Of a DNA stretch of 64,000 bases, positions 2,400 to 56,312 are shown piece after piece. Both the position numbers and the translations under genes were made by a program. This stretch comes from Candidatus Levybacteria bacterium RIFCSPHIGHO2_01_FULL_40_16 (GTDB lineage Bacteria > Patescibacteriota > Microgenomatia > Levybacterales > UBA12049): assembly GCA_001783805.1 (NCBI GenBank), contig MFNS01000006.1:34095-98094 (forward strand). The letters are read 5' to 3'. The notes beneath the pieces were generated by a model. The model had not been told where the DNA came from and did no database searches. It saw nothing but the letters and a program-made list of their open reading frames with translations. The first letter of the stretch is position 1, and every line of letters starts with the position of its first letter.

Positions 2400-3172
2400 T
2401 TAATTTAAAAACTAAAGAAGAGATTGAAATAATGCGCGCGGGCGGAAAAATCTTGGCGGATGTTTTGTTTGAAGTTCTAAAACATGTAAGAGTTGGCGTT
2501 TCAGAACTAGAGCTTGATCAATTAGCAGAAAAATTGATTTTGAATAAAGGCGGAGAGCCGGGATTTAAAAAAGTAGAGGGATACAAACATACTATTTGTA
2601 TTTCTACGAATGATGTTGTTGTTCACGGAATTCCGACTGAATATAAATTAAAAGAAGGCGATGTAATTGGTATAGATTGCGGGGTGTACTATAAAGGATT
2701 TCATACGGATATGGCGCAAACGCTTCGCGTTTCAACTCAAAACTCAAAGCTCAAAACTCAAAACTACAATAAGATCGATAAATTTTTGCAGGCTGGAGAA
2801 AAAGCGATGTGGAAGGGAATAAAAGCTGCTAAGCCGGGAAATAGGATTGGAGACATCTCCAAAGCAATTCAGGGGGTGGTAGAAGGGCAAGGCTATGCAG
2901 TCGTTAGAAGCCTAATCGGGCATGGGGTTGGAAAAGAGCTTCATGAGGATCCTGAAGTTCCGGGATTTCTGGATGATCCTGCCTTGGAAACTCCTCTTTT
3001 GAAAGAGGGAATGACGATAGCGATTGAGGCAATCTACAATATGGGTAAAAGTGACGTTGTTTATTCAGGAAATGACGGATGGACGATAAAAAGTAAAGAC
3101 GGAAGCCTATCTGGACTTTTTGAACGGACAATTGCCATTACTCGTCAAGAACCAATTATTTTAACGAAATAG
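2396..3172 (+). CDS. map: methionine aminopeptidase type I
   Basis: MetAP motifs (HGIP, GFHTD, metal ligands); ATGA overlap with cmk; carries an in-frame heptamer-repeat insert. Confidence 0.9.
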   Translation: MINLKTKEEIEIMRAGGKILADVLFEVLKHVRVGVSELELDQLAEKLILNKGGEPGFKKVEGYKHTICISTNDVVVHGIPTEYKLKEGDVIGIDCGVYYKGFHTDMAQTLRVSTQNSKLKTQNYNKIDKFLQAGEKAMWKGIKAAKPGNRIGDISKAIQGVVEGQGYAVVRSLIGHGVGKELHEDPEVPGFLDDPALETPLLKEGMTIAIEAIYNMGKSDVVYSGNDGWTIKSKDGSLSGLFERTIAITRQEPIILTK

Positions 3173-3201
3173 TTGCCCTTTGTAGGCTGGTTTGATATAA
3201 T
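3173..3201 (+). promoter_or_regulatory. candidate sigma70-type promoter for infA (-35 TTGCCC, extended -10 TGaTATAAT)
   Basis: TTGCCC, 17 nt spacer, TG-n-TATAAT about 90 nt upstream of infA ATG. Confidence 0.4.
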
Positions 3202-3210
3202 ATACAGTGT

Positions 3211-3281
3211 TAATTTCTAATTTCTAATTCCTAATTTCTAAAAATATTTAGGTCAATTAGGTCAATTAGTGATTAGGAATT
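3211..3281. repeat. heptamer tandem repeats (TAATTTC x4) plus imperfect inverted repeat in infA leader
   Basis: taatttc taatttc taattcc taatttc; aattcctaat ... attaggaatt inverted arms. Confidence 0.6.
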
Positions 3282-3288
3282 TTTTATT

Positions 3289-3507
3289 ATGGCTCATCAG
3301 GGATCTTTTGAGATAGAGGGAGTAGTTAAAGAATCGTTACCGAATACCCTTTTTAGAGTAGAACTAACAAATGGAGTGATAATTCTTTGTCATTTATCAG
3401 GCAAGATGAGGATGAATTTTATTAAAATATTGCCCGGAGACAAAGTAAGAGTCGAAATGACTCTTTACGATAAGACAAAGGGCAGAATAGTATACAGATA
3501 CAAGTGA
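3289..3507 (+). CDS. infA: translation initiation factor IF-1
   Basis: 72 aa S1-like fold with strong IF-1 similarity; classic position before rpmJ. Confidence 0.9.
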
Positions 3508-3513
3508 ATTGTT

Positions 3514-3627
3514 ATGAAAGTTCAGTCAAGTGTTAAGAAAAGATGCGTTAAATGCAGGATAATCAGGCGCGCAGGTGTTGTAAGGGTTGTTTGCGAAGTC
3601 CCCAAGCACAAGCAAAGACAAGGATAA
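3514..3627 (+). CDS. rpmJ: 50S ribosomal protein L36
   Basis: Not in ORF track (37 aa): [37 protein letters not shown]; Cys/His zinc ribbon; between infA and rpsM. Confidence 0.85.
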
Positions 3628-3722: not shown

Positions 3723-4124
3723 ATGAGAATTGCCGGATATAATTTACAAGATCTGAAAAGAGTTGATATTGCTTTAACTTATATTTATGGAATCGGACGC
3801 AAAAATGTTGTAAGCATCCTTAAAAAGGCAGAAGTAGAGGGTAACAAAAGAGTAAAGTCTTTGTCCGAAGATGAGCAAAAAAGAATTCAAAAAGTTTTGG
3901 AAGGATATAAGCTGGAAGGAGACTTAAGGGCTGAAGTACACGGAAACATCAAAAGATTAAAAGAAATCGGCTCTTACAGGGGCTCACGGCATAGCAAGAA
4001 CTTGCCCGTTCGCGGTCAGCGCACAAGATCAAATGCCAGAACAAAAAGAGGAAAGAGGGTTACAATCGGAGCTATCAAGAAAGAGGAAGCAGTGAAAACA
4101 GAAACGCAAAAGGAGACGAAATAA
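3723..4124 (+). CDS. rpsM: 30S ribosomal protein S13
   Basis: Strong S13 similarity (MRIAGYNL...GIGRKN). Confidence 0.9.
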   Translation: MRIAGYNLQDLKRVDIALTYIYGIGRKNVVSILKKAEVEGNKRVKSLSEDEQKRIQKVLEGYKLEGDLRAEVHGNIKRLKEIGSYRGSRHSKNLPVRGQRTRSNARTKRGKRVTIGAIKKEEAVKTETQKETK

Positions 4125-4127
4125 ACT

Positions 4128-4559
4128 ATGCCAGATTTTAAAGAAAATCCGAAAGTAAATGTTAAGTCAAATGCGACCAGCATAAAGAAAGCAAAAAAAA
4201 CTCAGGTTGCAGTATCCAGTACGGGACGCGCATATATAACCTCTACGTTCAACAACACTCTTATCACAGTGACAAACGATAAGGGAGATCCGATTGGCTG
4301 GAGCTCAGCAGGATCAGCAGGTTTTAAAGGTACGAGAAAATCTACCCCTTTTGCAGCAACTAGCGCAATGGAAGCCGTTGTTAAAAAAGCAGTTGAAAAA
4401 GGTTTGAAAACAGTTGAGGTATATGTTAAGGGTCCCGGAGCAGGCAGAGACTCGGCCCTAAGAGCAATTAAAAGCGGCGGATTATCGATCTCTTTAATTG
4501 CAGACATCACGCCGGTTCCGCATAATGGACCAAGAGCGAAGAAGAAAAGAAGAATTTAG
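4128..4559 (+). CDS. rpsK: 30S ribosomal protein S11
   Basis: S11 core ([12 protein letters not shown]...[12 protein letters not shown]). Confidence 0.9.
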
Positions 4560-6111: not shown

Positions 6112-6121
6112 ATTGCGTTAA
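6100..6121. terminator. perfect 10-bp palindrome spanning rpoA stop codon (TTAACGCAAT-aa-ATTGCGTTAA)
   Basis: Perfect inverted repeat read directly; no downstream T-tract. Confidence 0.35.
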
Positions 6122-6123
6122 AG

Positions 6124-6171
6124 TTCAAATCTTAAAGCTCAAAGCTCAAAGCTACAGCTCAAATCTTAAAA
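6124..6171. repeat. heptamer tandem repeat array (CTCAAAG-like, about 7 units), intergenic rpoA-rplQ
   Basis: ttcaaat cttaaag ctcaaag ctcaaag ctacag ctcaaat cttaaaa. Confidence 0.6.
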
Positions 6172-6259: not shown

Positions 6260-6721
6260 ATGAGAAAGAATGTTTTCGGAAGACAATTTAGCAGAGATAC
6301 GAATGAAAGAAAGTCGCTTTTTAAGAGTCTTATCTCTGCTCTAATTCTTCAAGAAAGCATTCAGACAACCTTGGAAAAAGCAAAGGCAATAAAGGGAGAC
6401 GTTGATAAAATCATAAATCAAGCCAAAAGAGGAAATGAAAGGCAAGCGATCCAACTTTTGCAACGCAGTCTTGGAGTAGAGGCACTTAATAAAGTTATAA
6501 AAGATTTGTTGCCTCGATTTAAAGATCGGACCAGCGGATACACAAGAATTATAAAATTAGGCAGGAGATTTTCGGACAATGCCGCGATGGTCGTGATGGA
6601 ATGGGTGGTAAAACCAGAAATTAAAAATGAAAAATTAAAAATGAAAAATGACGTTAAGAAATTATTAGCGGGAAAAATTGAGGAAAAACAAAAAGCAAAA
6701 GGAAAGGTTGCAAAGAAATGA
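6260..6721 (+). CDS. rplQ: 50S ribosomal protein L17
   Basis: L17 core (GYTRIIKLGRRFSDNA); Lys-rich C-terminal tail partly encoded by heptamer repeats. Confidence 0.85.
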   Translation: MRKNVFGRQFSRDTNERKSLFKSLISALILQESIQTTLEKAKAIKGDVDKIINQAKRGNERQAIQLLQRSLGVEALNKVIKDLLPRFKDRTSGYTRIIKLGRRFSDNAAMVVMEWVVKPEIKNEKLKMKNDVKKLLAGKIEEKQKAKGKVAKK

Positions 6722-12081: not shown

Positions 12082-12759
12082 ATGCCAGTAAAGAAAAGTC
12101 AAAGGTCAAAGGTCAAAAATCAAAAGTTATCAGCAGTAATCGCGGTGCCGAAAGCAATTAACACCTCCATTAAAGATAAATTGAAACAACCGAAAAACTT
12201 TATTCCATTAATAATTATTGCGTTAATAATTATTGCATTTTCATTGAAAGGATTATTTGTTGTAGCTTTGGTCAACGGAGAGCCGATTGCAAGAATCGCT
12301 GTTGTCTCCGAATTGGAAAAACAGGGAGGAAAACAAGCTCTTTCATCTTTGGTAAATCAAACTCTTATTTTACAGGAAGCAAGGAAGAAGAATATTCAAG
12401 TTAGCCAAGCGGAAATTGATGCGGCAGCAAAGCAAATCGAAGACAGTCTTAAAAGCCAGGGGCAAAATTTGGATACGGCGTTAGCGATGCAGGGAATGAC
12501 CAGAAAAGATTTATCAACGCAATTAAAATTAAGAAGTCTGGTTGAAAAATTGCTTACAGATAAAGTCAAAGTTACAGACAAAGAAGTTGCGGATTACATT
12601 GAAAAAAACAAAGACACTTTCCCGGCTGAAATGAAGGAAGAAGAAATCAAAAAAAGCGTCACGGAGCAATTAAAACAGCAAAAGTTGGGCAGTGCATCTC
12701 AAGTTTGGCTGGCGGAACTTAACAAAAACGCCAAGATCAACTACTTCGTTAACTACTAG
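12082..12759 (+). CDS. membrane-anchored SurA N-terminal-domain-like chaperone protein
   Basis: N-terminal TM then SurA_N-like helical domain; heptamer repeats encode KSQRSKVKNQK near N-terminus; start uncertain (12034 or 12082). Confidence 0.4.
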   Translation: MPVKKSQRSKVKNQKLSAVIAVPKAINTSIKDKLKQPKNFIPLIIIALIIIAFSLKGLFVVALVNGEPIARIAVVSELEKQGGKQALSSLVNQTLILQEARKKNIQVSQAEIDAAAKQIEDSLKSQGQNLDTALAMQGMTRKDLSTQLKLRSLVEKLLTDKVKVTDKEVADYIEKNKDTFPAEMKEEEIKKSVTEQLKQQKLGSASQVWLAELNKNAKINYFVNY

Positions 12760-12765
12760 AATTAA

Positions 12766-13017
12766 ATGAGTCAAAAACTTGTAGAAAGAATCGGCTGGGC
12801 AGCCTCCGCAATAGCGATTCTCATGTGGTTTTCCTTTATTGATCAAATCCGCTTAAATCTATCCGGACAAAAAGGTTCGCTACTAATCCCAATAGTGGTT
12901 ACGATAAACTGTATTTTGTGGACAATGTTTGGATTGGGGAAGAAAAACTGGCAGATAATTTCAGCTAATGTGCCGGGAATATTTCTCGGCGTCCTCACCG
13001 CGCTCACCGCGCTATAA
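12766..13017 (+). CDS. SemiSWEET / PQ-loop family small membrane transporter
   Basis: 83 aa, 3 TM; aligns with SemiSWEET (IGWAASAI...FIDQI..., LW..FGL, SANV). Confidence 0.45.
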   Translation: MSQKLVERIGWAASAIAILMWFSFIDQIRLNLSGQKGSLLIPIVVTINCILWTMFGLGKKNWQIISANVPGIFLGVLTALTAL

Positions 13018-13384
13018 TTTTTTGGCAGTTTTTACTTCCACAATTACATTTAAAATTAACAAACGCTCCGATTTTCGCATAGTCCGAAGTTACCTCTTCT
13101 CCTTTGCGAATATTTTTTAAAGCAATATCGCAATTATTTTTTACATAGGTATTTGGATCGCAAGAATGATTGACGTATCTTTCCGGAGGTTGCATTAAAA
13201 GGTATTTATTACTGTTTATTTTCTGGATATAATGTTTTTCTGTCTTCGGTAGCTTATCTATTTCGGATCTTACAATAATTTTCGGATTCCATTTAAGAGC
13301 AATCTCACCTTTTTTAAAATCTTTTACAGCAAATACGCCCTTTTTATTAATTTTTGATTTTTTAACGAGAATATGATTGCTCAT
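13004..13384 (-). CDS. SET domain protein (putative protein-lysine methyltransferase)
   Basis: NHSCDPN signature and EEVTSDY, C-terminal Cys cluster (post-SET-like). Confidence 0.7.
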   Translation of the reverse strand: MSNHILVKKSKINKKGVFAVKDFKKGEIALKWNPKIIVRSEIDKLPKTEKHYIQKINSNKYLLMQPPERYVNHSCDPNTYVKNNCDIALKNIRKGEEVTSDYAKIGAFVNFKCNCGSKNCQKIIAR

Positions 13385-13409
13385 TAATAATATACTTGTT
13401 CAAAAAGTG

Positions 13410-13480
13410 TCGGGATGCAGGGAATTGAACCCTGGCTACCGCACCCCCAGCGCGGCGTACTACCGTTATACGACATCCCG
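13410..13480 (-). tRNA. tRNA-Pro (anticodon GGG)
   Basis: Cloverleaf folded by hand: 7-bp acceptor CGGGATG/CATCCCG, anticodon loop CTGGGGG, T-loop TTCAATT; no encoded CCA. Confidence 0.8.
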
Positions 13481-13497
13481 TTCTTGCTTTGCAATTT

Positions 13498-13526
13498 GTC
13501 TTTAGTTCTTTGTCTTTAGCCTTTGG
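13498..13526. repeat. CTAAAGAC-containing repeats (inverted orientation) downstream of four-helix-bundle gene
   Basis: gtctttagttctttgtctttag; same 8-mer as upstream repeats 13882..14019. Confidence 0.5.
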
Positions 13527-13867
13527 TTGGATAAAGATTTTATCAAAGCATTTAATTCTTTTCCAACTATTTCACATTTTTCTAATGCAGTTCTTATGTC
13601 AATTTTGAATAATTTCTCAGCGATTTTTAATCCCGCAACAGTCTCGTATAGCGATTTTAAAGCTATCCTTAAGAAACTTTTGAATTCAATATCTCCTAAT
13701 GCTCCTGTTCCTTCTGCTATGTTTAAAACGATAGATGTTGTAGATCTTTTTAGTTGATTTATTAAAGCAAATTTTTCTTCAATAGGTAAATTTTCTGTAA
13801 GTCTGTATACTTCTTCGACTAAGATTAAAGCATTATGATAAACCCTCAGTTTTTCAAATCTATACAT
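13502..13867 (-). CDS. four-helix-bundle protein (TIGR02436 / Avd-like, 23S rRNA-IVS protein family)
   Basis: 121 aa, all-helical, family-typical YRLTENLPIEEKFALINQLKRSTTSIVLNIAEG region. Confidence 0.55.
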   Translation of the reverse strand: MYRFEKLRVYHNALILVEEVYRLTENLPIEEKFALINQLKRSTTSIVLNIAEGTGALGDIEFKSFLRIALKSLYETVAGLKIAEKLFKIDIRTALEKCEIVGKELNALIKSLSNQRLKTKN

Positions 13868-13881
13868 TGTTGATCTTTGGT

Positions 13882-14019
13882 CGTTAGTCTTTGGACGATA
13901 ACCTAAAGACTAATTGCTAACGACTAATTTTGATCTATTGTATTTTAACATAAATATACTACAATAATTATGCTTTTTTAGTTAGCTAAAGACTAATTGC
14001 TAACAACTAAAGACTAATT
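13882..14019. repeat. direct/inverted repeat cluster (CTAAAGACTAATTGCTAAC x2 perfect, plus partial and inverted copies) immediately upstream of recA
   Basis: 19-nt perfect direct repeats at 13903-13921 and 13986-14004 bracket a TTGATC..17..AATATA promoter-like sequence; ends at recA ATG. Confidence 0.55.
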
Positions 14020-15090
14020 ATGGGCAGGACTCCGGCATCTCAAAAATCTATTCCCAATAGTCACACGGAAGCCTCCGGCAAACTCGCTGCAGTGAATCTG
14101 GCCATGGAGCAAATCGAGAAACAATATGGTCGTGGTTCGATCATGCGCTTTGGCGAAGTCGGTCAAAAGTTCGACATCTCGGTTATCTCCACAGGCTGTC
14201 TTCCCCTGGATCTGGCGCTTGGAGTAGGCGGAGTGCCAAGGGGCAGAATCATCGAAATCTACGGTCCGGAAGCCTCGGGAAAAACCACGATTTGCCTTTC
14301 CATTATTGCGCAAGCGCAAAAGCATGGAGGTGTCGCAGCCTTTATTGATGCGGAGCACGCGCTTGATCCCTTGTGGGCAGAAAAATTAGGAGTAAAACTT
14401 GATAATCTTTTGATTTCTCAACCGGATACCGGTGAGCAGGCTTTGGAAATTGCAGAAAGTTTAATTAGGAGTGGCGGAGTTGATGTTTTGGTAATCGATT
14501 CGGTTGCTGCTCTAGTTCCCAGAGCGGAAATTGAAGGGGAAATGGGAGACTCAATGATGGGGCTTCAGGCGCGTCTCATGTCCCAAGCTCTTAGAAAATT
14601 AACCGGTGTTATTTCCAAATCAAAAACAGTTTGTATATTTACAAACCAATTGCGTCAAAAAATCGGAATAATGTTTGGCAATCCCGAAACTACCACCGGA
14701 GGTTTGGCTCTCAAATTCTATGCCACAATGAGAATGGATGTTCGGAAAATTGAAACCTTAAAAGACGGCGATCGAGCAATTGGGTCCCGTCATCGGGTAA
14801 AAGTGGTAAAGAATAAGGTCTCGGCTCCATTTAGAATTGCAGAGTTTGATGTAATGTCGGACGGGATTTCCAGAGAGGGTGGGATCGTGGATGTCGGAGT
14901 GGAAATGAACGTAATTGAAAAATCCGGAGCGTTTTATAAATATGGAGATTTGATGTTGGGACAAGGAAAAGAAGCGACAAAGATATTTCTTAAAGAAAAG
15001 CCTGATGTCTCCAAAAAAATCGTTGACGAGATTTTAAAAATAAATAAATCCGGCGGCACCCCAGTCGAAGTCGGCGTAGAAGAAAAATAA
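14020..15090 (+). CDS. recA: recombinase RecA
   Basis: Walker [11 protein letters not shown]1/L2 loops, canonical RecA throughout. Confidence 0.9.
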
Positions 15091-15099
15091 CCTCCACAA

Positions 15100-15588
15100 A
15101 TGGATAATTTTGAAAAATTTTACAATAAGGCACTGGAGTTCTTGTCTTATCGTCCACGGTCGGAGAAAGAAGTGAGAGACCGTTTGAAGCTCAAAACTCA
15201 AAAGTCAAAGCTCAAAAGTTCAACTCAAAACTCAAAATTAATTGATAGTATTGTTGAAAAACTTAAGGAAAAGAAGTTTATTGATGATGAAGGGTTTGCT
15301 AAGGGATGGGTTGAAAGCAGGTTAAGATTTAAGCCGCGAAGTTTACGTTTAATACAATTGGAATTAAAACAGAAAGGCATAGATCAAGAAATAATTAACA
15401 ATTTACAGTTAACAGATGACAGCGATTTGAAATCCGCAAAACAGCTTGTTGGAAAGAGGATTGAGAGACTGAAGGGCTTACCAAGGCAAAAAATCTATGA
15501 AAAATTGGGTAGATATTTGGCTTCAAAAGGATTTAACTGGGATACGATCAAAAAGAGTATTGACGAGATATTGGACAAAGGAGTATAA
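15100..15588 (+). CDS. recX: RecA regulator RecX
   Basis: RecX-like helical repeats, directly after recA; contains in-frame heptamer-repeat insert (LKTQKSKLKSSTQNSKL). Confidence 0.7.
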   Translation: MDNFEKFYNKALEFLSYRPRSEKEVRDRLKLKTQKSKLKSSTQNSKLIDSIVEKLKEKKFIDDEGFAKGWVESRLRFKPRSLRLIQLELKQKGIDQEIINNLQLTDDSDLKSAKQLVGKRIERLKGLPRQKIYEKLGRYLASKGFNWDTIKKSIDEILDKGV

Positions 15589-22026: not shown

Positions 22027-23157
22027 TTAGTCGAAATAGAGCTCTGGGTTAGCAATGATTTTATTCCATGACATTTTTTCCGGGTGGAAGCAAGCATATG
22101 AGCCGATCATCGCGGCATTATCGGTACACAAACTTTTTTCAGGATAAAAAAGTTTAATTTCCAATTTCAAATTTCCAATTTCAAATTTCAAATGATCGCG
22201 GAGCTTTTGATTGCAAGCGACACCGCCGCCCAAAAGAATTGATTTTACCTTGTATTTTTTCGCTGCCCTGATAGTTTTGCGGACGAGAACTTCAATAATT
22301 GATTTTTGGACGCAGGCGCAAATGTCTGCAATGACAGCTTCTTTAAGTTGGGGTCCTGCCGCCAGTTTCCCTCCCGCCAGTGCTCCTTCCAAGCGTTCAG
22401 TCCGCGCTGTCGGGAGCCCTTCCTCTGGCGTCACCCCTCTTTTTAATTTGTTAACTTCGCGCCAGACTGCTGCTTTAAGACCAGAAAAAGAAAAATCAAA
22501 ATCTTTTGAGCCAATCATCGGCCGTGGGAACGTAAAGCGACTAGCAATGCCACGTTCTGAAAGCTTTTCGATTATTGGACCTGCGGGATAAGGTAGATTT
22601 AAAAGCCTGCCGATTTTGTCAAAAGCTTCCCCTGCCGCATCATCTCGGGTTCCGCCCAGCCACTCAAAGTTATTGTAATCTTTCATTAATAACAAATCAG
22701 TGTGTCCTCCCGAAACTAGTAATGTAATTGCCGGAAATTCAATTTTTGATTTTTGATTTTTGATTTTTGATTTTTCGCTAACGAAGTTAGCGAATATGTG
22801 TCCGAGTAAATGATTTACAGGAATTATGGGTTTTTTCCAAAGATAACCTAAAGTTTTTGCAGTTTCAACTCCAATCAGAAGCGATCCAATGAGTCCCGGG
22901 CCTTCGGTTACAGCAATTGCGTCAATGTCTTTAATTTTTAATTTAGAATTATCAATTGCCTTTTCTACTACCGGAATAATGAATTTCAATTGTTCGCGGG
23001 CTGCGATATCGGGAATAATTCCGCCGGTTTTTGCATGGAAAGTTAAGGATGACGCAACAACATTTGCTAAAACTTTAACGTAATTTTCTTTGGGATTTTT
23101 GGAAACGACAGCGGCTGCGGTTTCATCACAACTGGTTTCAATTGCCAAGATTTTCAT
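22027..23157 (-). CDS. tsaD: tRNA N6-adenosine threonylcarbamoyltransferase TsaD
   Basis: MKILAIETSCDETAAAV, HxxGH metal site, Kae1/TsaD fold; two in-frame heptamer-repeat inserts. Confidence 0.9.
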   Translation of the reverse strand: MKILAIETSCDETAAAVVSKNPKENYVKVLANVVASSLTFHAKTGGIIPDIAAREQLKFIIPVVEKAIDNSKLKIKDIDAIAVTEGPGLIGSLLIGVETAKTLGYLWKKPIIPVNHLLGHIFANFVSEKSKIKNQKSKIEFPAITLLVSGGHTDLLLMKDYNNFEWLGGTRDDAAGEAFDKIGRLLNLPYPAGPIIEKLSERGIASRFTFPRPMIGSKDFDFSFSGLKAAVWREVNKLKRGVTPEEGLPTARTERLEGALAGGKLAAGPQLKEAVIADICACVQKSIIEVLVRKTIRAAKKYKVKSILLGGGVACNQKLRDHLKFEIGNLKLEIKLFYPEKSLCTDNAAMIGSYACFHPEKMSWNKIIANPELYFD

Positions 23158-24102: not shown

Positions 24103-24159
24103 AATTTTTAATTTTCAATTTTTAATTTTCATTGAAAATTTTAAATTTCAAATTTCAAA
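24103..24159. repeat. A/T-only heptamer-like repeats with 8-bp palindrome (AATTTTCA-tt-TGAAAATT) between convergent genes
   Basis: aattttc aattttt aattttc attgaaaatt ttaaatttcaaatttcaaa. Confidence 0.5.
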
Positions 24160-25611
24160 TTAGTTTTCCTTTGTACCCCTAAGAAAAATAGATTGCCAGG
24201 GAGCGTAATTTGAAATAAAGGTCTCCGAGATAATTTTTTTACCATTTTTCATTACTTCCCTTGCGAAAGAGGCTCTTGATCCTTCCGCACTGAAATCTAT
24301 TTGTTTTACTGTTCCCTTTGGCAGGGTTGGATCATCTTGGTATAGATCCGGGGGCGGCGGAACTCGGTTGGTAATTACCGGCTGAGTCAGGGTAACTTCT
24401 CTTCCGTCTTTAGTACCATAAAGAAAAACTGAGAGTCTTTGCTCTTCCAGATCGATTTGAGTTTGTACAAGGATGTAGTTACCGGTATCATTTTTGAATT
24501 TTAAGTCGACGCTCGGGACAAAAACAGTAGCATCCAGTCCTGGCAGACTGTCCTGCTCATAATACCCAACCCGATACGCGTGAGCATGCCTCTCCGTAAT
24601 TGGAACCCCCGCATTGAGAATTGCTCTGAAGAAAGTGGTTGATACTTGACAAATACCTCCTCCATCACCAAGCACTGTTTTGCCATTTTGGATAATATAG
24701 GCTTGTTGGTAGCCTGTAAAGGAAGAAACATCGCCCAAGGCTTTGGCAAAAGAAAATTCTTCATTGGGGGCAATTAGAACTCTATTTATTCTGGATGCGG
24801 CCAGGGTAATGTTGAATATTCTCTGAGGTATTGAATGCTGAAAAAGAGAAGTTCCCGTTCCAATCAATTCTTTTATGCCCAAATTGTTTGCTTTATCCGT
24901 AGTTATTTTAGGCGAAAAAGTTTTGATGGTAACCGGAATAACTATTTCTTGAGTTTTTTGTACTAACAATACCTTTTCAAATTGAGCTCTCAAATCTTGC
25001 TTAACTTTCTCCATATCAACCGCTTTGCCTTCTTCAGACGGTTTGAATGCCAGGACTTTTCCGTTTTGAAAAGTGAAAAGCGCATCAACGGGTTCCTTAT
25101 TCACCTTTTCTATAAATGGGGTCAAGGTTTTATTCAGCATGTCTTCGGAATAGCGGTATGCCGGCTGCAAATTTAATCCATTAAAGTATGCCTGAAAAGC
25201 AATGCTAATATTAGAGAGAAATTCATGGGATTTTCCCAAGCCTATTGCCTGCTGAGCAATGAGCTTTTCATCATAGCCAAACTTCAAATCTTTAGCTGAA
25301 ATTGTCGCTATATTCTCCGAAAGTGAAAATGTAAATTGAGTATTTTCAATAGTCTCGTTTCTCTTAGCAAACAATTCCTCGACTTCCTTTTGAGTAGATC
25401 CTCCTACGTAGATGTTATTAAACGTTATTCCCGGATAAACAACGCCGGCGTTCACCTTTTCATAGATAATAAATGTAAAACTTGCAAATAAAAATGCTGC
25501 CAAGACTGCTCCGGTAATAAACCAAAAGCAGGCTTTCATAATGCGTGTAATAATTTTTTTCCGGATTTTTAATTTTTTAGTTTGCTTCATTTGATATACT
25601 ATAGCTGACAT
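24160..25611 (-). CDS. VanW family protein (membrane-anchored)
   Basis: N-terminal TM; VanW core GDGGGICQVSTTFFRAILNAGVPITERHAH. Confidence 0.65.
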   Translation of the reverse strand: MSAIVYQMKQTKKLKIRKKIITRIMKACFWFITGAVLAAFLFASFTFIIYEKVNAGVVYPGITFNNIYVGGSTQKEVEELFAKRNETIENTQFTFSLSENIATISAKDLKFGYDEKLIAQQAIGLGKSHEFLSNISIAFQAYFNGLNLQPAYRYSEDMLNKTLTPFIEKVNKEPVDALFTFQNGKVLAFKPSEEGKAVDMEKVKQDLRAQFEKVLLVQKTQEIVIPVTIKTFSPKITTDKANNLGIKELIGTGTSLFQHSIPQRIFNITLAASRINRVLIAPNEEFSFAKALGDVSSFTGYQQAYIIQNGKTVLGDGGGICQVSTTFFRAILNAGVPITERHAHAYRVGYYEQDSLPGLDATVFVPSVDLKFKNDTGNYILVQTQIDLEEQRLSVFLYGTKDGREVTLTQPVITNRVPPPPDLYQDDPTLPKGTVKQIDFSAEGSRASFAREVMKNGKKIISETFISNYAPWQSIFLRGTKEN

Positions 25612-27089: not shown

Positions 27090-28113
27090 CCTAATTGTCT
27101 GTGGAGGAACATTTGACCATTTTCACAAGGGACACGAAGCATTTTTGAATTATGTTTTTTCTGTTGGCAAAAAATATCTTGTTGGAATAACCAGCGATAA
27201 CTACGTAAAAAATTCAAAATTTAGAATTCAGAATCCAGAATTTATTGAACCTTTTGAAAAAAGAAAAGAATCAGTTTTGGAGTTTGTAAAAAAAGAAAAA
27301 GCTTTAAATAAAGTTGAGATCATTAAAATAGAGGATTTGTTTGGGCCCACTCTTTCTAAAGATCTAGTGATTGATGCAATTGTTGTGTCACAGGATTCAA
27401 AAGATGGAGCAGACATCATTAATCAAAAAAGAAAAGAGCTCAAGTTGGCTGCGCTTAAGGTCTTTGTTGTTCCTCCTGTTAATTCTGAGGACGGAAAGCT
27501 TATTTCGTCCGCGAGAATTAGGAACGGCGAAATAAATAGAGCAGGCAGACTCTATGTAAAACCGGTATGGCTTCAAAAAGATTTAATTCTCCCAAAAGAT
27601 TTAAGAGAAGAGTTTCATAAACCGTTTGGTGGATTATTTAAAGCTATTACAGATTCGAATATTCTCAAAAAGTCTTTGATAATTGCAGTCGGTGACGAAA
27701 CATCCAGAAATCTTAATAAGTTAGCTGTCAATCAAAGGCTCTCTGTGGTAGATTTTAAGGTTGCGCGAAAGAAAAAATTTTCCTCATTCCTAGATCTTGG
27801 TTTCTCAGGAAATGAGAAAGTTGTATTTGCAAATAATCCTGCAGGCCACATGACGCATGATCTTTTCTCAAAAATCTTAGATATTTTTAAATTCAGTTTT
27901 AGCAAGAGGATAATCTTAAAAATAGCAGGAGAAGAAGACCTTGCGGTTTTACCCTTAATCTTGGCAGCGCCTCTGGACACTGTCATTTATTATGGTCAGC
28001 CCCCACTTCGCTCTGCGAGCTACGCGGGGCAGGCAGGCATTATAAAAGTGGTAGTTACAGAACAAAGTAAAGAGCGCGCTTATGATCTAGCCTCAAGACT
28101 AAAGCCTATATAA
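27079..28113 (+). CDS. archaeal-type phosphopantetheine adenylyltransferase fused to DUF359-like (GTP-dependent dephospho-CoA kinase-like) domain
   Basis: N-terminus CGGTFDHFHKGH (cytidylyltransferase HxGH); C-terminal half resembles DUF359 (IAVGDETSRNL...VVDFK). Confidence 0.45.
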   Translation: MPNNLIVCGGTFDHFHKGHEAFLNYVFSVGKKYLVGITSDNYVKNSKFRIQNPEFIEPFEKRKESVLEFVKKEKALNKVEIIKIEDLFGPTLSKDLVIDAIVVSQDSKDGADIINQKRKELKLAALKVFVVPPVNSEDGKLISSARIRNGEINRAGRLYVKPVWLQKDLILPKDLREEFHKPFGGLFKAITDSNILKKSLIIAVGDETSRNLNKLAVNQRLSVVDFKVARKKKFSSFLDLGFSGNEKVVFANNPAGHMTHDLFSKILDIFKFSFSKRIILKIAGEEDLAVLPLILAAPLDTVIYYGQPPLRSASYAGQAGIIKVVVTEQSKERAYDLASRLKPI

Positions 28114-45847: not shown

Positions 45848-46323
45848 AAATTAAAGAAAAAGTTTTTGTTACAAATAATTTCGAAGAGACACAAAAACTA
45901 GGAGAGAATTTTGCAAGGTCTCTCCTTGCAAGTCCGCAAGGAGAGACCTCAAATGTGATTACTCTCTATGGGGAGTTGGGAAGCGGCAAAACAACTTTTG
46001 TTCAGGGGTTAGCGGCTGGCCTTGGAATTAAGAACAGAATTATTTCCCCTACATTCATAATAGTCAGAAGCTATAAATTAAGGATTAAGGATAAAGGATT
46101 AATGATAAATGACTTTTATCATATAGATTTGTATAGGGTGGAGAGCGAGAGGGATCTTGAGGGTTTAGGGATTGAAGAAATTGTAAATAATAAAAATAAT
46201 ATTGTGGTAATTGAGTGGGCGGAAAAATTAAAAAAATACTTGCCTCAAAAAAGAATAGACATAAAATTTTCATATGAAAAAGACAACATAAGAAAAATTA
46301 TGTTTGGATCTTCAAATCAATAA
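45844..46323 (+). CDS. tsaE: tRNA threonylcarbamoyladenosine biosynthesis protein TsaE
   Basis: LYGELGSGKTTFVQG P-loop, SPTFII, HIDLYR; contains heptamer-encoded insert KLRIKDKGLM. Confidence 0.75.
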   Translation: MKIKEKVFVTNNFEETQKLGENFARSLLASPQGETSNVITLYGELGSGKTTFVQGLAAGLGIKNRIISPTFIIVRSYKLRIKDKGLMINDFYHIDLYRVESERDLEGLGIEEIVNNKNNIVVIEWAEKLKKYLPQKRIDIKFSYEKDNIRKIMFGSSNQ

Positions 46324-46627: not shown

Positions 46628-47206
46628 ATGGATAAGGTTAAAAAAGCAATTGAAGTTTTAAGGCAGGGCGGAATAGTTATTTTTCCAACAGATACGGCTA
46701 TCGGCATTGGCTGCAGAGTAGATGATAAAAAAGCAGTAGAAAGATTATTTAAAATCCGCAAAAGACCTGAAAATAAACCAATGTTAATATTGGTTAATTC
46801 GATTGAGATGGCTCAAGATTATTTATTACCAATTTCTCAAGAAATTAAGAATAAGCTGATTAAACGCTATTGGCCGGGAAAGCTTACAATTATTCTGCAA
46901 AGCAAAATTGATAAGGTGCCAAATTTGGTAAGAGGCGGAACAAATACTCTTGGCGTTAGATTTCCCGATAGTAAAAATTTGTTAAAATTAATTAGCGGAG
47001 TGGGCGTACCAGTTGTTGCGCCATCTGCAAATTTTGCAGGCGAGAAAACACCGTTTAGATTTGAAGATCTAAATCCAAAACTTATAAAACAAGCGGATTA
47101 TGTTTTAAATGAAGAAATAAGTTTGGAAAAAAATGTTTCAACTATAATTGATTGTACGGTTACGCCCTGGAAGGTTATCAGAGAAGGAGCGGTAAAGATA
47201 AATTAA
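46628..47206 (+). CDS. tsaC: L-threonylcarbamoyladenylate synthase (YrdC/Sua5 domain)
   Basis: YrdC motifs (FPTDTAIGIG, VRGGTNTLGVRFP, PSANFAG). Confidence 0.8.
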   Translation: MDKVKKAIEVLRQGGIVIFPTDTAIGIGCRVDDKKAVERLFKIRKRPENKPMLILVNSIEMAQDYLLPISQEIKNKLIKRYWPGKLTIILQSKIDKVPNLVRGGTNTLGVRFPDSKNLLKLISGVGVPVVAPSANFAGEKTPFRFEDLNPKLIKQADYVLNEEISLEKNVSTIIDCTVTPWKVIREGAVKIN

Positions 47207-47208
47207 AA

Positions 47209-47565
47209 ATGAAAAATGAAAAATTAAAAATTATTTTGGTACTAGATACTGCAGATAGTCAAGAAATTACAGTAGGTTTGATTATTGATGGCCGGAAAGA
47301 CATTCAAACCAAAAAGGTTATTTTCAATAAGACACAAATTATCCTGCCAATGGTTGATAAGATTCTAAAAAAACATTTATTAGCGCCAAAAGATTTATCG
47401 GAAATTCAAATTAACCTCGGGCCGGGATCATTCACAGGCTTACGGATTGGTCTTGCCATTGCCAATGCTTTGTCTTTTGTTCTCAAAGTTCCGGTTAATG
47501 GAAAAAAAGCCGGAGAAATAATTTTGCCAATATATTCCTCCTCCGCGAAAAGCAAACAGCATTAG
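47209..47565 (+). CDS. tsaB: TsaB (YeaZ)-like protein, N-terminal domain only (short form)
   Basis: ILVLDTA ... GPGSFTGLRIGLAIANAL; only about 119 aa from ATG at 47209. Confidence 0.55.
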   Translation: MKNEKLKIILVLDTADSQEITVGLIIDGRKDIQTKKVIFNKTQIILPMVDKILKKHLLAPKDLSEIQINLGPGSFTGLRIGLAIANALSFVLKVPVNGKKAGEIILPIYSSSAKSKQH

Positions 47566-51075: not shown

Positions 51076-51938
51076 AAATTTTGGGAACGGGACTAGATGG
51101 GCTTGTTGGGTCAAGAATAATTGAGCTTTTAAGCGGTAAGCATGAGTTTGAGAATCTCAGCCTCAGTACGGGAGCGGACATTACGGATAGGAATGCAATT
51201 CTCCAAAAAATCAAAAACTCGGATGCTCAAATCATGCTTCACTTAGCCGCGAAAACCGATGTTGATGGATGCGAATTGGATAAGCCATTAGGAGAAAAAG
51301 GAGATGCTTGGAAAATTAATGTGTTTGGAACACAAAACGTAGTTGACGGATGTTCGGAGAGTAATAAAAAAATAATTTATATTTCTACGGATTTTGTTTT
51401 TGATGGAACAAAAGAAGCTTATTCGGAAGAAGATGCTCCAAATCCGCTCAGCTGGTACGCCAAAACAAAATATGAGGGAGAAAAAATCGTCCAAACTTCA
51501 AAAATTCCCTGGATCATTGTCCGTATTGCCTCTCCCTATAGGGCAGTATTCAAAAAATTAGATTTTACTCGCGCGATTCTTAAGCGTTTACAAGAAGGAC
51601 TTTCTGTAGTAGCGGTTAAGGATCATATTTTTACTCCGACATTTATTGACGATATTGCCTTGGCAATCGACGTTCTGATTGCAGATAATTTACAGGGCAT
51701 ATTCCATGCCGTTGGGAGTCAGAGCTTAACACCTTTTGCTGCCTCTATTCTGATAGCAAAAGAATTTAGTTTGGATTCATCTAAAATCACTGAAACTAGA
51801 AGAGCTGAGTTTTTTAATAATCGAGCGCCCAGGTCTTTCCAACTGGCGCTGAAAAATGATAAAATACAAAGATTAGGAGTAAAAATGAAGACGTTTGAAG
51901 AAGGACTGAGAGAGATAAAAAAACAAGGGATAATTTGA
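51072..51938 (+). CDS. rmlD: dTDP-4-dehydrorhamnose reductase-like (RmlD family)
   Basis: ATGA overlap with rmlB; LGTGLDGLVGSRI Rossmann motif, YAKTKYEGE (YxxxK). Confidence 0.7.
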   Translation: MKILGTGLDGLVGSRIIELLSGKHEFENLSLSTGADITDRNAILQKIKNSDAQIMLHLAAKTDVDGCELDKPLGEKGDAWKINVFGTQNVVDGCSESNKKIIYISTDFVFDGTKEAYSEEDAPNPLSWYAKTKYEGEKIVQTSKIPWIIVRIASPYRAVFKKLDFTRAILKRLQEGLSVVAVKDHIFTPTFIDDIALAIDVLIADNLQGIFHAVGSQSLTPFAASILIAKEFSLDSSKITETRRAEFFNNRAPRSFQLALKNDKIQRLGVKMKTFEEGLREIKKQGII

Positions 51939-52034
51939 AATTTTAAATTTGCAATTTTCAATCAAATCTAAATTTTAAAATTAAAACATTAAAAATTCAT
52001 TAAAAATTAAAAATTTTAAATTGAAAATTAAGTT
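51939..52034. repeat. 96-nt A/T-only low-complexity heptamer-like repeat tract (AAATTTT/AAAATTA units) filling rmlD-ugd intergenic
   Basis: Essentially G/C-free; periodic aaatttt, aaaatta, aaaattc units. Confidence 0.5.
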
Positions 52035-55337: not shown

Positions 55338-56312
55338 ATGGATAAATCAAGAAAAAGAGTATTGGTAGCAGGTGGTGCGGGATTTATTGGTTCGCATTTA
55401 TGCAAAAGTTTATTAGACGGGAATTACAAAGTAATCGCAATAGACAATCTTCTGACAAGTACTAAAGATAATTTAAAAGATCTTCTAAAAAATCCTGAAT
55501 TCACATTTTTAGAGCATGATGTTACCGACCAAATTTCAAATTTCAAATTTCAAATTTCAAATTTGGACTATATCTTCCACTTGGCAAGTCCTGCATCCCC
55601 AAATCAAAAAAGCGCAAGGAGTTACATAAATCATCCAATAGAAACTTTACTTGCAAATTCACTTGGAACATATAATCTTTTGGAATTAACCCGTCAATTT
55701 AACGCTAAATTTTTATATGCTTCTTCATCCGAAGTTTACGGAGATCCCGCAATATCTCCTCAAAAGGAAGATTATTTTGGTAGTGTAAATCCAAATGGAA
55801 TAAGATCTGTGTATGATGAGGGAAAAAGATTTGGAGAAGCAATTACATCTGGGTACGTACGGAAATATGGTTTGGATGCTCGCATAATTCGTATTTTTAA
55901 CACTTACGGACCAATAATGCTGGCTGATGATGGAAGGGTGGTGTCTAATTTCATTAACCAGGCAATAGAAAATAAGCCGATTACAGTTTATGGAAAAGGT
56001 ACTCAAACAAGAAGTCTTTGCTATGTTGATGATATGGTTTCCGGAATAAAACTGGCAATGCTGACTCCGAATACCAAGGGAGAAGTTTTTAATTTAGGTA
56101 ATCCGGATGAGCGAAGCATTCTAGATATTGCAAAGCTTATTAAGAGTCTGACCAATTCAAAATCAAAAATTGTTTTTGAAGATTTGCCTATCGATGATCC
56201 AAAATCCAGAAAGCCTGATATCGCCAAAGCAAAAAGAATTTTAGGGTGGGAACCAAAAGTCTCAACAGAGAGAGGCTTACGAAAAACCATAGATTATTTT
56301 AGAAACATATGA
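55338..56312 (+). CDS. UDP-glucuronate decarboxylase (UDP-xylose synthase, UXS/ArnA-decarboxylase-like SDR)
   Basis: GGAGFIGSHL, HLASPASP, YDEGKR (YxxxK), RIFNTYGP; carries heptamer-encoded insert ISNFKFQISN. Confidence 0.7.
   Translation: MDKSRKRVLVAGGAGFIGSHLCKSLLDGNYKVIAIDNLLTSTKDNLKDLLKNPEFTFLEHDVTDQISNFKFQISNLDYIFHLASPASPNQKSARSYINHPIETLLANSLGTYNLLELTRQFNAKFLYASSSEVYGDPAISPQKEDYFGSVNPNGIRSVYDEGKRFGEAITSGYVRKYGLDARIIRIFNTYGPIMLADDGRVVSNFINQAIENKPITVYGKGTQTRSLCYVDDMVSGIKLAMLTPNTKGEVFNLGNPDERSILDIAKLIKSLTNSKSKIVFEDLPIDDPKSRKPDIAKAKRILGWEPKVSTERGLRKTIDYFRNI

Follow-up and report, generated by a model that had tools for sequence, protein, structure and literature searches.

A gene for a four-helix-bundle (4HB) protein lies between tRNA-Pro(GGG) and recA, flanked on both sides by heptamer repeats, in a 64-kb stretch of the genome of Candidatus Levybacteria bacterium RIFCSPHIGHO2_01_FULL_40_16 (contig MFNS01000006.1; the whole 64,000-nucleotide stretch is called the window below). 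The gene and its repeats probably form a cassette of the intervening-sequence (IVS) type that lacks its own promoter and is seated in a stable-RNA transcription unit, here that of the tRNA. To our knowledge, the origin and purpose of IVS elements and of 4HB open reading frames (ORFs) have been unclear since about 1990, and the best-studied case, that of Coxiella, has a decaying ORF. The locus described here would be an element of the IVS kind outside rRNA and inside a predicted tRNA transcript, and natural filled and empty alleles in close relatives define its ends to the nucleotide. The features that carry this reading are as follows.

13481..13925, minus strand: whole cassette, 445 bp, consisting of the 5' heptamer arm, the 4HB ORF, and the 3' heptamer arm (from filled and empty alleles)
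13868..13925, minus strand: cassette 5' arm, the putative mRNA leader (from hairpin folding and an alignment of 11 orthologs)
13502..13867, minus strand: 4HB gene, 121 aa, PF05635/TIGR02436 (from hidden Markov model [HMM] scores and an AlphaFold model)
13481..13526, minus strand: cassette 3' arm with sense heptamers, which starts in the last ORF codons, includes the stop codon, and ends at tRNA +1
13409..13480, minus strand: tRNA-Pro(GGG), the host gene, with the cassette in its 5' leader (ARAGORN; Rfam tRNA, 57.4 bits)
13942..13950, minus strand: predicted extended −10 box TGtTAAAAT of the tRNA-Pro promoter (conserved in filled and empty loci)

The extent of the cassette was read from loci that have it and loci that do not. 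Filled loci (the window, L001, L003, L005, L086 to L088, and L090 to L093) were gathered by protein lookups and a metagenome scan, which gave 11 further loci with 4HB proteins 63 to 82% identical. Every filled locus that reaches far enough has recA, then the divergent 4HB gene and tRNA-Pro(GGG), with different genes past the tRNA, and all filled loci have the same type of heptamer arm with drifting unit sequences. For the empty-site sample, seven recA homologs (83 to 95% identical) were picked blind to their upstream content. All seven relatives (L166 to L172) lacked both the 4HB gene and the heptamers and retained tRNA-Pro(GGG) beside recA; these are the empty sites that an earlier reading of the window (the initial annotation) had proposed to look for in the tRNA-Pro to recA interval. 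The tRNA is divergent from recA in five of them (L167 to L169, L171, and L172), and the distance from the recA ATG to tRNA +1 is 47 to 51 nt in L168, L169, L171, and L172, with the same divergent promoters. The flanking synteny is otherwise kept (UppS, SurA-like, SWEET, tRNA, recA, recX, and RNase Y). By this sequence comparison, recA is the ancestral neighbor of tRNA-Pro, cassette or not, and the cassette, which close relatives either have or lack as a single block, is a discrete and dispensable insert. Two of the empty relatives, L170 (1876-1947) and L166 (1880-1951), one of them the closest in the sample (recA 95%), have tRNA-Pro(GGG) in the inverse orientation, so that it is read in the same direction as recA; the tRNA leader of L170 reads TATAATACAAAGACTT/tRNA and holds one CAAAGAC-like unit.

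At the junction, the empty sites read ...CAATAGATCAAAATT/tRNA, and the window has the same 15 nt, then 445 bp, then the tRNA. For example, the empty allele of L172 is ...TGGTATAATGCAATAGATCAAAATT/CGGGG(tRNA), and the window allele is ...TGTTAAAATACAATAGATCAAAATT/AGTCGTTAGC...445 bp...GCAAGAA/CGGGATG(tRNA). Because these junctions are exact, the cassette can be placed at 13481-13925. Its start lies about 10 nt past the predicted transcription start site (TSS) of the tRNA, and its end is at tRNA +1, which is the RNase P site. The initial annotation had described a small inserted cassette at a tRNA site; the discrete insert stands, with clean junctions and with the repeats belonging to it, and the island-like integration does not, as the cassette lies between the tRNA promoter/TSS and tRNA +1 and has long been resident there.

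Long residence is indicated because the cassette occurs in lineages whose recA proteins are merely 67 to 75% identical and because 4HB and recA have diverged together: across cassette-bearing lineages (recA identity 67 to 100%), pairwise 4HB identity tracks recA identity with a Spearman coefficient of 0.79. Given the deepest cassette-bearing lineages (L092, L093, L088, and L005) and this codivergence, we favor an old insertion followed by repeated clean loss (or regain at the same site); alternatively, the entire recA-tRNA segment may have been replaced by homologous recombination. Bootstrap values of 19 to 49 in the recA neighbor-joining tree are too weak for counting gains and losses.

Next, the transcription of the cassette was considered. 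All 11 filled loci share the extended −10 sequence TATGnTAAAATACAA, which precedes the 5' arm by about 10 nt, and a TGnTA(A/T)AAT box lies 14 to 17 nt upstream of tRNA +1 in the empty loci L168, L169, L171, and L172. We infer that the TATGnTAAAATACAA box is the tRNA-Pro promoter and that it drives the cassette too in this genome. Transcription from it would give a single precursor RNA made up of leader, 5' arm, ORF, 3' arm, and tRNA, because this promoter is the only conserved one upstream of the ORF and no terminator-like site was found between it and the tRNA. Cleavage by RNase P at tRNA +1 would then release a normal tRNA and leave the host gene unharmed; maturation by RNase P would account for the tolerance of a 445-nt insert, because the enzyme frees the tRNA regardless of the upstream sequence. 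The 5' product of this cut, about 455 nt long, would be the 4HB mRNA, translatable, like most genes in this genome, without a Shine-Dalgarno (SD) sequence. An SD-like motif was seen in just 5 of 47 window genes, and in many genes a −10-like box stands just a few bases upstream of the ATG, a pattern that suggests widespread leaderless or SD-independent initiation in this genome.

The repeats that flank the ORF were then analyzed. Their unit, taken as an octamer in the initial annotation, has a period of 7 (TTAGTCN/NGACTAA), not 8. On the gene strand, the 5' arm contains antisense heptamers, AGTCGTTAGCAATTAGTCTTTAGG (TTAGTCN), after the promoter and then sense heptamers, CCAAAGACTAACGACCAAAGATC (CAAAGAC), that end 6 nt before the ATG; both arrays lie between the TSS and the ATG, and their register is visible in the 11-ortholog alignment. 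The 3' arm is composed of sense units (CCAAAGG CTAAAGA CAAAGAA CTAAAGA CAAATTGC...). The sequence CTAAAGAC occurs in 7 copies in the window, compared with 1.8 ± 1.4 expected, and none of 100 shuffles reached 7; five copies lie at 13498-14014, and the other two are within the VanW and secA coding regions. A 19-mer, CTAAAGACTAATTGCTAAC, with an expected count of 0.01, is perfect at 13903-13921 (copy 1, in the 5' arm) and at 13986-14004 (copy 2), and a third copy on the minus strand at 13487-13505, in the 3' arm, has 3 mismatches; the window holds no others. As the initial annotation had correctly placed them, the repeats flank the gene, and the two perfect 19-mers bracket promoter-like sequence, now read as divergent promoters, with a further CTAAAGACTAATT at 14007-14019 that abuts the recA ATG.

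Both arms are arrays of degenerate heptamers, and the two can pair. The duplex between the 5' and 3' arms has a predicted energy of −21.1 kcal/mol, compared with −10.8 ± 2.4 kcal/mol for shuffled sequences (1 of 500 as good), and a local hairpin within the 5' arm has −13.7 kcal/mol, compared with −5.7 ± 2.1 kcal/mol (0 of 500). Arm pairing was significant in seven of the eight orthologs tested (no more than 2 of 300 shuffles folded as well); L086 was the exception. The fold of the whole 456-nt transcript was uninformative (z = −0.6), and arm-only analyses were used instead. Either the arm-arm stem or the local 5' hairpin would present a double-stranded RNA site for RNase III, as in 23S IVS elements. 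The match of this architecture to the Coxiella 23S IVS suggests such an RNase III step; given how short the window helices are, we propose it tentatively and with modest confidence.

The terminal inverted repeats of the Coxiella 23S IVS form a 28-bp stem, which RNase III cuts; the S23p ORF occupies the loop that this stem closes, and tandem heptamers (GACAGAT, three to four copies) stand immediately before the ATG (PMC4990558). The Levybacteria cassette resembles the 23S IVS elements with an S23p/23S_rRNA_IVP ORF, which are found in Coxiella burnetii, Leptospira, Brucella, and Xanthomonas (PMC4990558), in its homologous PF05635 ORF, in the placement of that ORF between terminal inverted repeats with tandem heptamers just upstream of the ATG, in its sporadic presence among relatives, and in the lack of a recombinase; its seat in a stable-RNA precursor and its removal by normal processing, as predicted here from sequence, would be further likenesses. 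It differs in its host, a tRNA 5' leader rather than helix 45 or 25 of 23S rRNA (the window has no rRNA), and in that removal would need RNase P alone and would leave the mature RNA unfragmented. Compared with the Coxiella IVS, the window stem is far weaker (runs of 8 to 9 bp versus 28 bp), and the window ORF evolves under strong purifying selection, in contrast to that of Coxiella, which is decaying and probably not translated. A closer precedent by lineage comes from bacteria of the candidate phyla radiation (CPR), in which 23S_rRNA_IVP ORFs occur in insertions of 16S and 23S rRNA (10.1101/2024.02.27.582315). These share with the cassette the superphylum, the protein family, and a stable-RNA gene context; they lie inside rRNA genes and, in the parts of that report available to us, are cataloged by Pfam content, with a tRNA-leader site or heptamer arms undescribed. 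Our literature search did not find 4HB genes in tRNA leaders or 4HB genes tied to heptamer arrays outside rRNA.

The protein itself was assigned by sequence and structure. The 4HB ORF scored 90.1 bits against TIGR02436 (cutoff 24) and 89.4 bits against PF05635 (cutoff 33.8); it belongs to the 23S rRNA IVS protein/four-helix-bundle family. Both the TIGR02436-type gene between tRNA-Pro(GGG) and recA that the initial annotation had named, with the tRNA called by ARAGORN and Rfam, and its placement in the IVS-protein/Avd superfamily were borne out by these scores and by the fold. The AlphaFold monomer model has a mean predicted local distance difference test (pLDDT) score of 92.7 and four helices (residues 3-24, 29-51, 59-87, and 92-119). 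The best Foldseek match in the PDB was XCC0516 (2GSC; template modeling [TM] score of 0.82 to 0.88, 34% identity; phmmer versus 2gsc, E = 7.5e-12), BT_0352 (2RLD) matched with a TM score of about 0.7 to 0.79, and the Avd structures 4DWL and 8UB7 were more distant (0.72 to 0.81).

The family motif is GxxRxxxSxxxNxxE (PMC3936711). Among 42 orthologs, R41, S45, N49, and E52 of this motif are invariant, the first position is an invariant Q38 rather than G, and the alignment has 24 invariant columns. The median dN/dS (ratio of nonsynonymous to synonymous substitution rates) among orthologs was 0.105, with dS saturated, which indicates strong purifying selection on the ORF. Since selection clearly maintains the ORF, the protein does something. 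By analogy with its structural relatives XCC0516 and Avd, it is most likely a ring-forming nucleic-acid-binding factor; that its target is its own or other heptamer-repeat RNA is a guess. The variable C terminus of the protein (…KTKN, …PKTKD) is translated heptamer array. The whole protein is identical (100%) to that of Levybacteria RIFCSPLOWO2_01_FULL_39.

To place the locus in a wider context, flanks were analyzed at 75 4HB loci from many phyla. Duplexes between a locus's own flanks had a mean of −47.4 kcal/mol, compared with −33.4 for cross-locus pairs and −33.7 for shuffles, with z < −3 in 36 of the 75 loci, and the flanks shared a mean of 8.8 inverted 6-mers, compared with 2.9 in control segments of the same loci. 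The heptamer unit is lineage specific (GGTCTACA, GGGGACA, GGTTCGT, CTGACTA…). Several distant 4HB genes also neighbor stable-RNA genes on the same strand: one lies between two tRNA-Met genes (L094), two lie within Thr-Tyr-Thr-Trp tRNA clusters (L095 and L096), four directly follow tRNA-Ala(CGC) (L103, L114, L118, and L163), and one (L149, 2501-2839) abuts the 5' end of 16S rRNA. Of the 36 remaining loci, 33 have both neighboring genes on the same strand as the 4HB gene; the gaps to them have medians of 86 and 53 nt. Co-orientation and short gaps fit a promoter-less cassette that rides on host transcripts. An Rfam scan of 60 distant 4HB loci gave no 23S context and one 16S leader (that of L149), along with a tmRNA gene 750 nt upstream of the 4HB gene in L101. 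A second, truncated 4HB copy was seen in the tRNA cluster of L095 (1168-1431), and the 16S rRNA gene of L149 (2818-5339) also has a group I intron.

Heptamer arrays are not confined to the flanks of the 4HB gene. The window contains 20 period-7 tandem arrays, compared with 1 to 5 in Markov simulations, and period 7 dominates its repeat spectrum. The arrays use many different units, and several directly precede start codons. Their positions include the following.

2734-2765, 3211-3241, 6120-6163, 6618-6651, 12094-12127, 15190-15237, 22156-22193: period-7 arrays, first half of the list
22742-22775, 24103-24161, 27211-27242, 46077-46112, 47200-47233, 51932-52031, 55530-55564: period-7 arrays, second half of the list

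In-frame arrays occur inside MetAP, L17, recX, TsaD (twice), and an epimerase, where they encode loops rich in K, N, Q, and S. The recX loop (about residues 30-46; window 15190-15237) varies in length and has an array of a different unit in each genome (L001, L003, L169, L170, and L172). The intergenic array at 24103-24161 is internally palindromic (…AATTTTCATTGAAAATT…), like two inverted arms without an ORF between them. Comparable repeats of the heptamer TAACTGA have been described in Beggiatoaceae, cyanobacteria, and Bacteroidetes, where a repeat-binding or mobile protein was suspected (PMC4679880). Those repeats likewise consist of tandem 7-nt units with stop codons in the forward frames and lie mostly within operons between genes, near start codons, and sometimes in frame inside genes (PMC4679880). 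They differ in that PMC4679880 draws no link to 4HB genes; in the loci studied here, complementary array pairs surround one ORF, and the unit is locus specific.

The association of such arrays with 4HB genes was quantified in about 2.5 kb around 4HB genes (L094 to L165; 167 kb), with 4HB copies masked by ±300 nt, and in control DNA around recA of 80 unrelated bacteria (L006 to L085; 451 kb). The control loci came from a recA peptide-pattern scan; these patterns are universal, and the loci represent distant phyla only and carry no synteny information. The surroundings of 4HB genes held 64 period-7 and 73 other-period arrays (38 period-7 arrays per 100 kb), and the recA control held 37 and 341 (8.2 period-7 arrays per 100 kb). 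The excess of period 7 over other periods was highly significant (Fisher odds ratio 8.1, p = 1e-18), and the difference persisted within GC bins. That 4HB proteins and heptamer arrays are functionally tied is an attractive possibility. A far broader proposal, which we consider speculative and rather doubtful, is that PF05635 4HB genes and their arms are widespread promoter-less cassettes colonizing transcribed spacers and that bacterial heptamer arrays have their trans-acting partner in the 4HB protein. If this were true, the colonized spacers would be rRNA helices, tRNA leaders and spacers, 16S leaders, and operon gaps, and the protein would bind, maintain, or help generate the arrays; the approximately 5-fold excess of period-7 arrays around 4HB genes, the array-rich Levybacteria genome, and the copy of the arm in the recA leader would then be explained. 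The tRNA clusters, the 16S leader, the near-universal co-orientation, and the heptamer link serve as leads on how these cassettes spread and on the origin of heptamer repeats.

Several observations weigh against an IVS-type cassette in the tRNA leader. The longest uninterrupted helix in the window is 8 to 9 bp, which is short for RNase III, and no RNase III gene was found within the 64-kb window. In L086, the 5' antisense arm is missing from inside the transcript. Heptamer arrays are common throughout the genome, as the count of 20 in 64 kb illustrates, and the flanking arrays may have a role unrelated to a closing stem. Of the two hallmarks of a transposon or MITE, the cassette shows inverted arms, but no target-site duplication is visible at its junctions (TT/AG ... 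AA/CG); it also has no recombinase or known mobility mechanism. The codivergence of 4HB and recA describes a gene that has long been in place and is lost now and then, rather than a mobile element with visible activity. Finally, a promoter-like site in the 3' end of the ORF (13566-13537, minus strand; TTGGAA-18-TAAAAT with TG) could serve the tRNA independently; it lies within the conserved GKELNALIKS codons, about 50 nt before the tRNA, and some orthologs keep it. An internal tRNA promoter was not relied on, as the site is unconserved at synonymous positions in L087, L088, L092, and L093.

Some of these points would also be expected if the 4HB gene were an ordinary accessory host gene cotranscribed with tRNA-Pro. 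The arrays would then be protein-binding sites instead of a closing stem, and the cassette would not be IVS-like in mechanism. One candidate for the bound protein is the 4HB protein, as a pentamer, which might thereby regulate its own expression or protect the RNA. The strong purifying selection and the codivergence with recA suit such a gene, as do the A-rich sense-strand heptamer arrays directly before several other start codons in the window and the period-7 enrichment around 4HB genes of many phyla with the cassettes masked. L086, with its missing antisense arm, fits as well, and so does an array copy number that is unchanged in 10 assemblies; no copy-number (phase) variation of the kind seen among Coxiella strains was found across them. 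A binding-site role is harder to reconcile with complementarity between upstream and downstream flanks that is both family-wide and locus specific, with arrays that vanish together with the ORF in empty sites, and with units that are wholly different between lineages (GTCTTTA, GGTCTACA, GGGGACA, GGTTCGT, and others), which are hard to fit to one conserved binding specificity. We therefore regard an accessory host gene as improbable, though a serious alternative, and prefer the IVS-type cassette.

The repeats on the recA side raise a different question, for which the following features are relevant.

13938..13965, plus strand: recA promoter-like hexamers, −35 TTGTAT (13938-13943) and −10 TACAAT (13960-13965) (predicted from sequence)
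13970..14019, plus strand: lineage-specific recA-leader repeat block, about 50 nt (from comparison of filled and empty loci)
14020..15090, plus strand: recA, not part of the cassette (PF00154, 431 bits)

The recA −35 hexamer TTGTAT overlaps the tRNA −10 box on the opposite strand, and the hexamer motif is kept in filled and empty loci. In the majority of loci, 9 to 10 nt separate the recA −10 box (TACAAT or similar) from the ATG, so recA would be nearly leaderless there. In the window, the repeat block duplicates the cassette 5' arm across the promoters, with the same heptamers; it contains 19-mer copy 2, the unit at 14007-14019, and a GTTAGC/GCTAAC hairpin, and it provides recA, otherwise nearly leaderless, with a leader of about 50 nt that runs up to the ATG. 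Over 19 to 25 nt, the recA leader is a perfect complement of the cassette leader RNA; the duplex predicted between them in trans has −33.7 kcal/mol, compared with −16.8 ± 3.2 kcal/mol for shuffles (0 of 500). These perfect matches raise the idea that the recA-side repeats are operator-like or antisense elements that couple recA expression to the cassette, with RNAs that could pair and be cut or blocked. The distribution of the block argues against this. It is limited to the window, L003, and L086 and is absent from four other cassette-bearing loci (L001, L005, L087, and L090) and from all seven empty loci, and for this reason it is not a conserved part of either recA control or the cassette; in addition, the block by itself folds no better than shuffled sequences do (z = −0.4). 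Coupling of recA to the cassette is accordingly unlikely in general, and the recA operator suggested in the initial annotation is not supported by the comparison, although a lineage-specific antisense effect on recA is possible. The sequence AATTATG stands at both ends of the block (13966-13972 and 14016-14022) and resembles a target-site duplication that includes the start codon; L003 matches at five of seven positions, and the putative duplication is convincing in the window alone.

A third explanation would make the 4HB gene the Avd accessory gene of a diversity-generating retroelement (DGR) that is dispersed or has decayed; it draws on the shared four-helix-bundle fold and on a distant similarity to Avd (PF22296, 20.7 bits; PHROG "Avd protein of DGR," E = 0.0044; TM scores for 4DWL and 8UB7 as above). 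The bAvd score is below the curated cutoff of 40, whereas the IVS-protein models give about 90 bits. No reverse transcriptase (RT) was found among the 40 scanned window ORFs or in the gene tables of the orthologous loci L001, L003, and L005, the window has no long template/variable repeat pair, and the genomic partner with which synteny is kept is the tRNA, not an RT. A DGR origin, which the initial annotation had left to be checked, is therefore very improbable. Finally, a chance origin of the repeats in AT-rich intergenic DNA is virtually excluded, as is an assembly artifact, in spite of the AT richness of the region (29 to 35% GC), by the shuffle controls, by the same repeat type in all orthologs, and by 10 independent assemblies of the population in which 650 nt of the locus are identical and in which the locus sequence can therefore be no assembly artifact.

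Genomic islands at tRNA sites carry an integrase, insert at the tRNA 3' end, and duplicate a tRNA segment. The Levybacteria locus resembles them in having variable DNA beside a tRNA gene and differs in that the cassette is on the 5' side, between promoter and tRNA, spans 445 bp, and has no integrase or duplicated tRNA 3' end. An integrase-mediated tRNA-site island was rejected, since the cassette is 5' of the tRNA, its sole ORF is the 4HB gene, and it has no tRNA-derived repeat.

On the minus strand, the gene order of the neighborhood is 4HB ORF (13867-13502), tRNA-Pro(GGG) (13480-13409), and SET-domain gene (13384-13004); on the plus strand, recA is followed by recX and RNase Y. Apart from the tRNA, a search of the region for known RNA families matched nothing, and PADLOC returned zero matches, so that no defense function was indicated. 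The remaining gene of the neighborhood is listed below.

13004..13384, minus strand: SET-domain gene (PF00856, E = 1e-13)

A gap of 24 nt separates the tRNA 3' end from the SET-domain gene, which lies downstream and overlaps the final part of the SWEET-like ORF. This gene is missing at the same position in L170 to L172 and L003, and it is split by a frameshift in one assembly (L178); because of its absence from those loci, it is a second lineage-specific insert beside the tRNA. L172 has an extra 136-aa ORF between recA and recX (3116-3526) and a GIY-YIG gene between recX and RNase Y (3985-4242), which points to more small insertions in the recA neighborhood.

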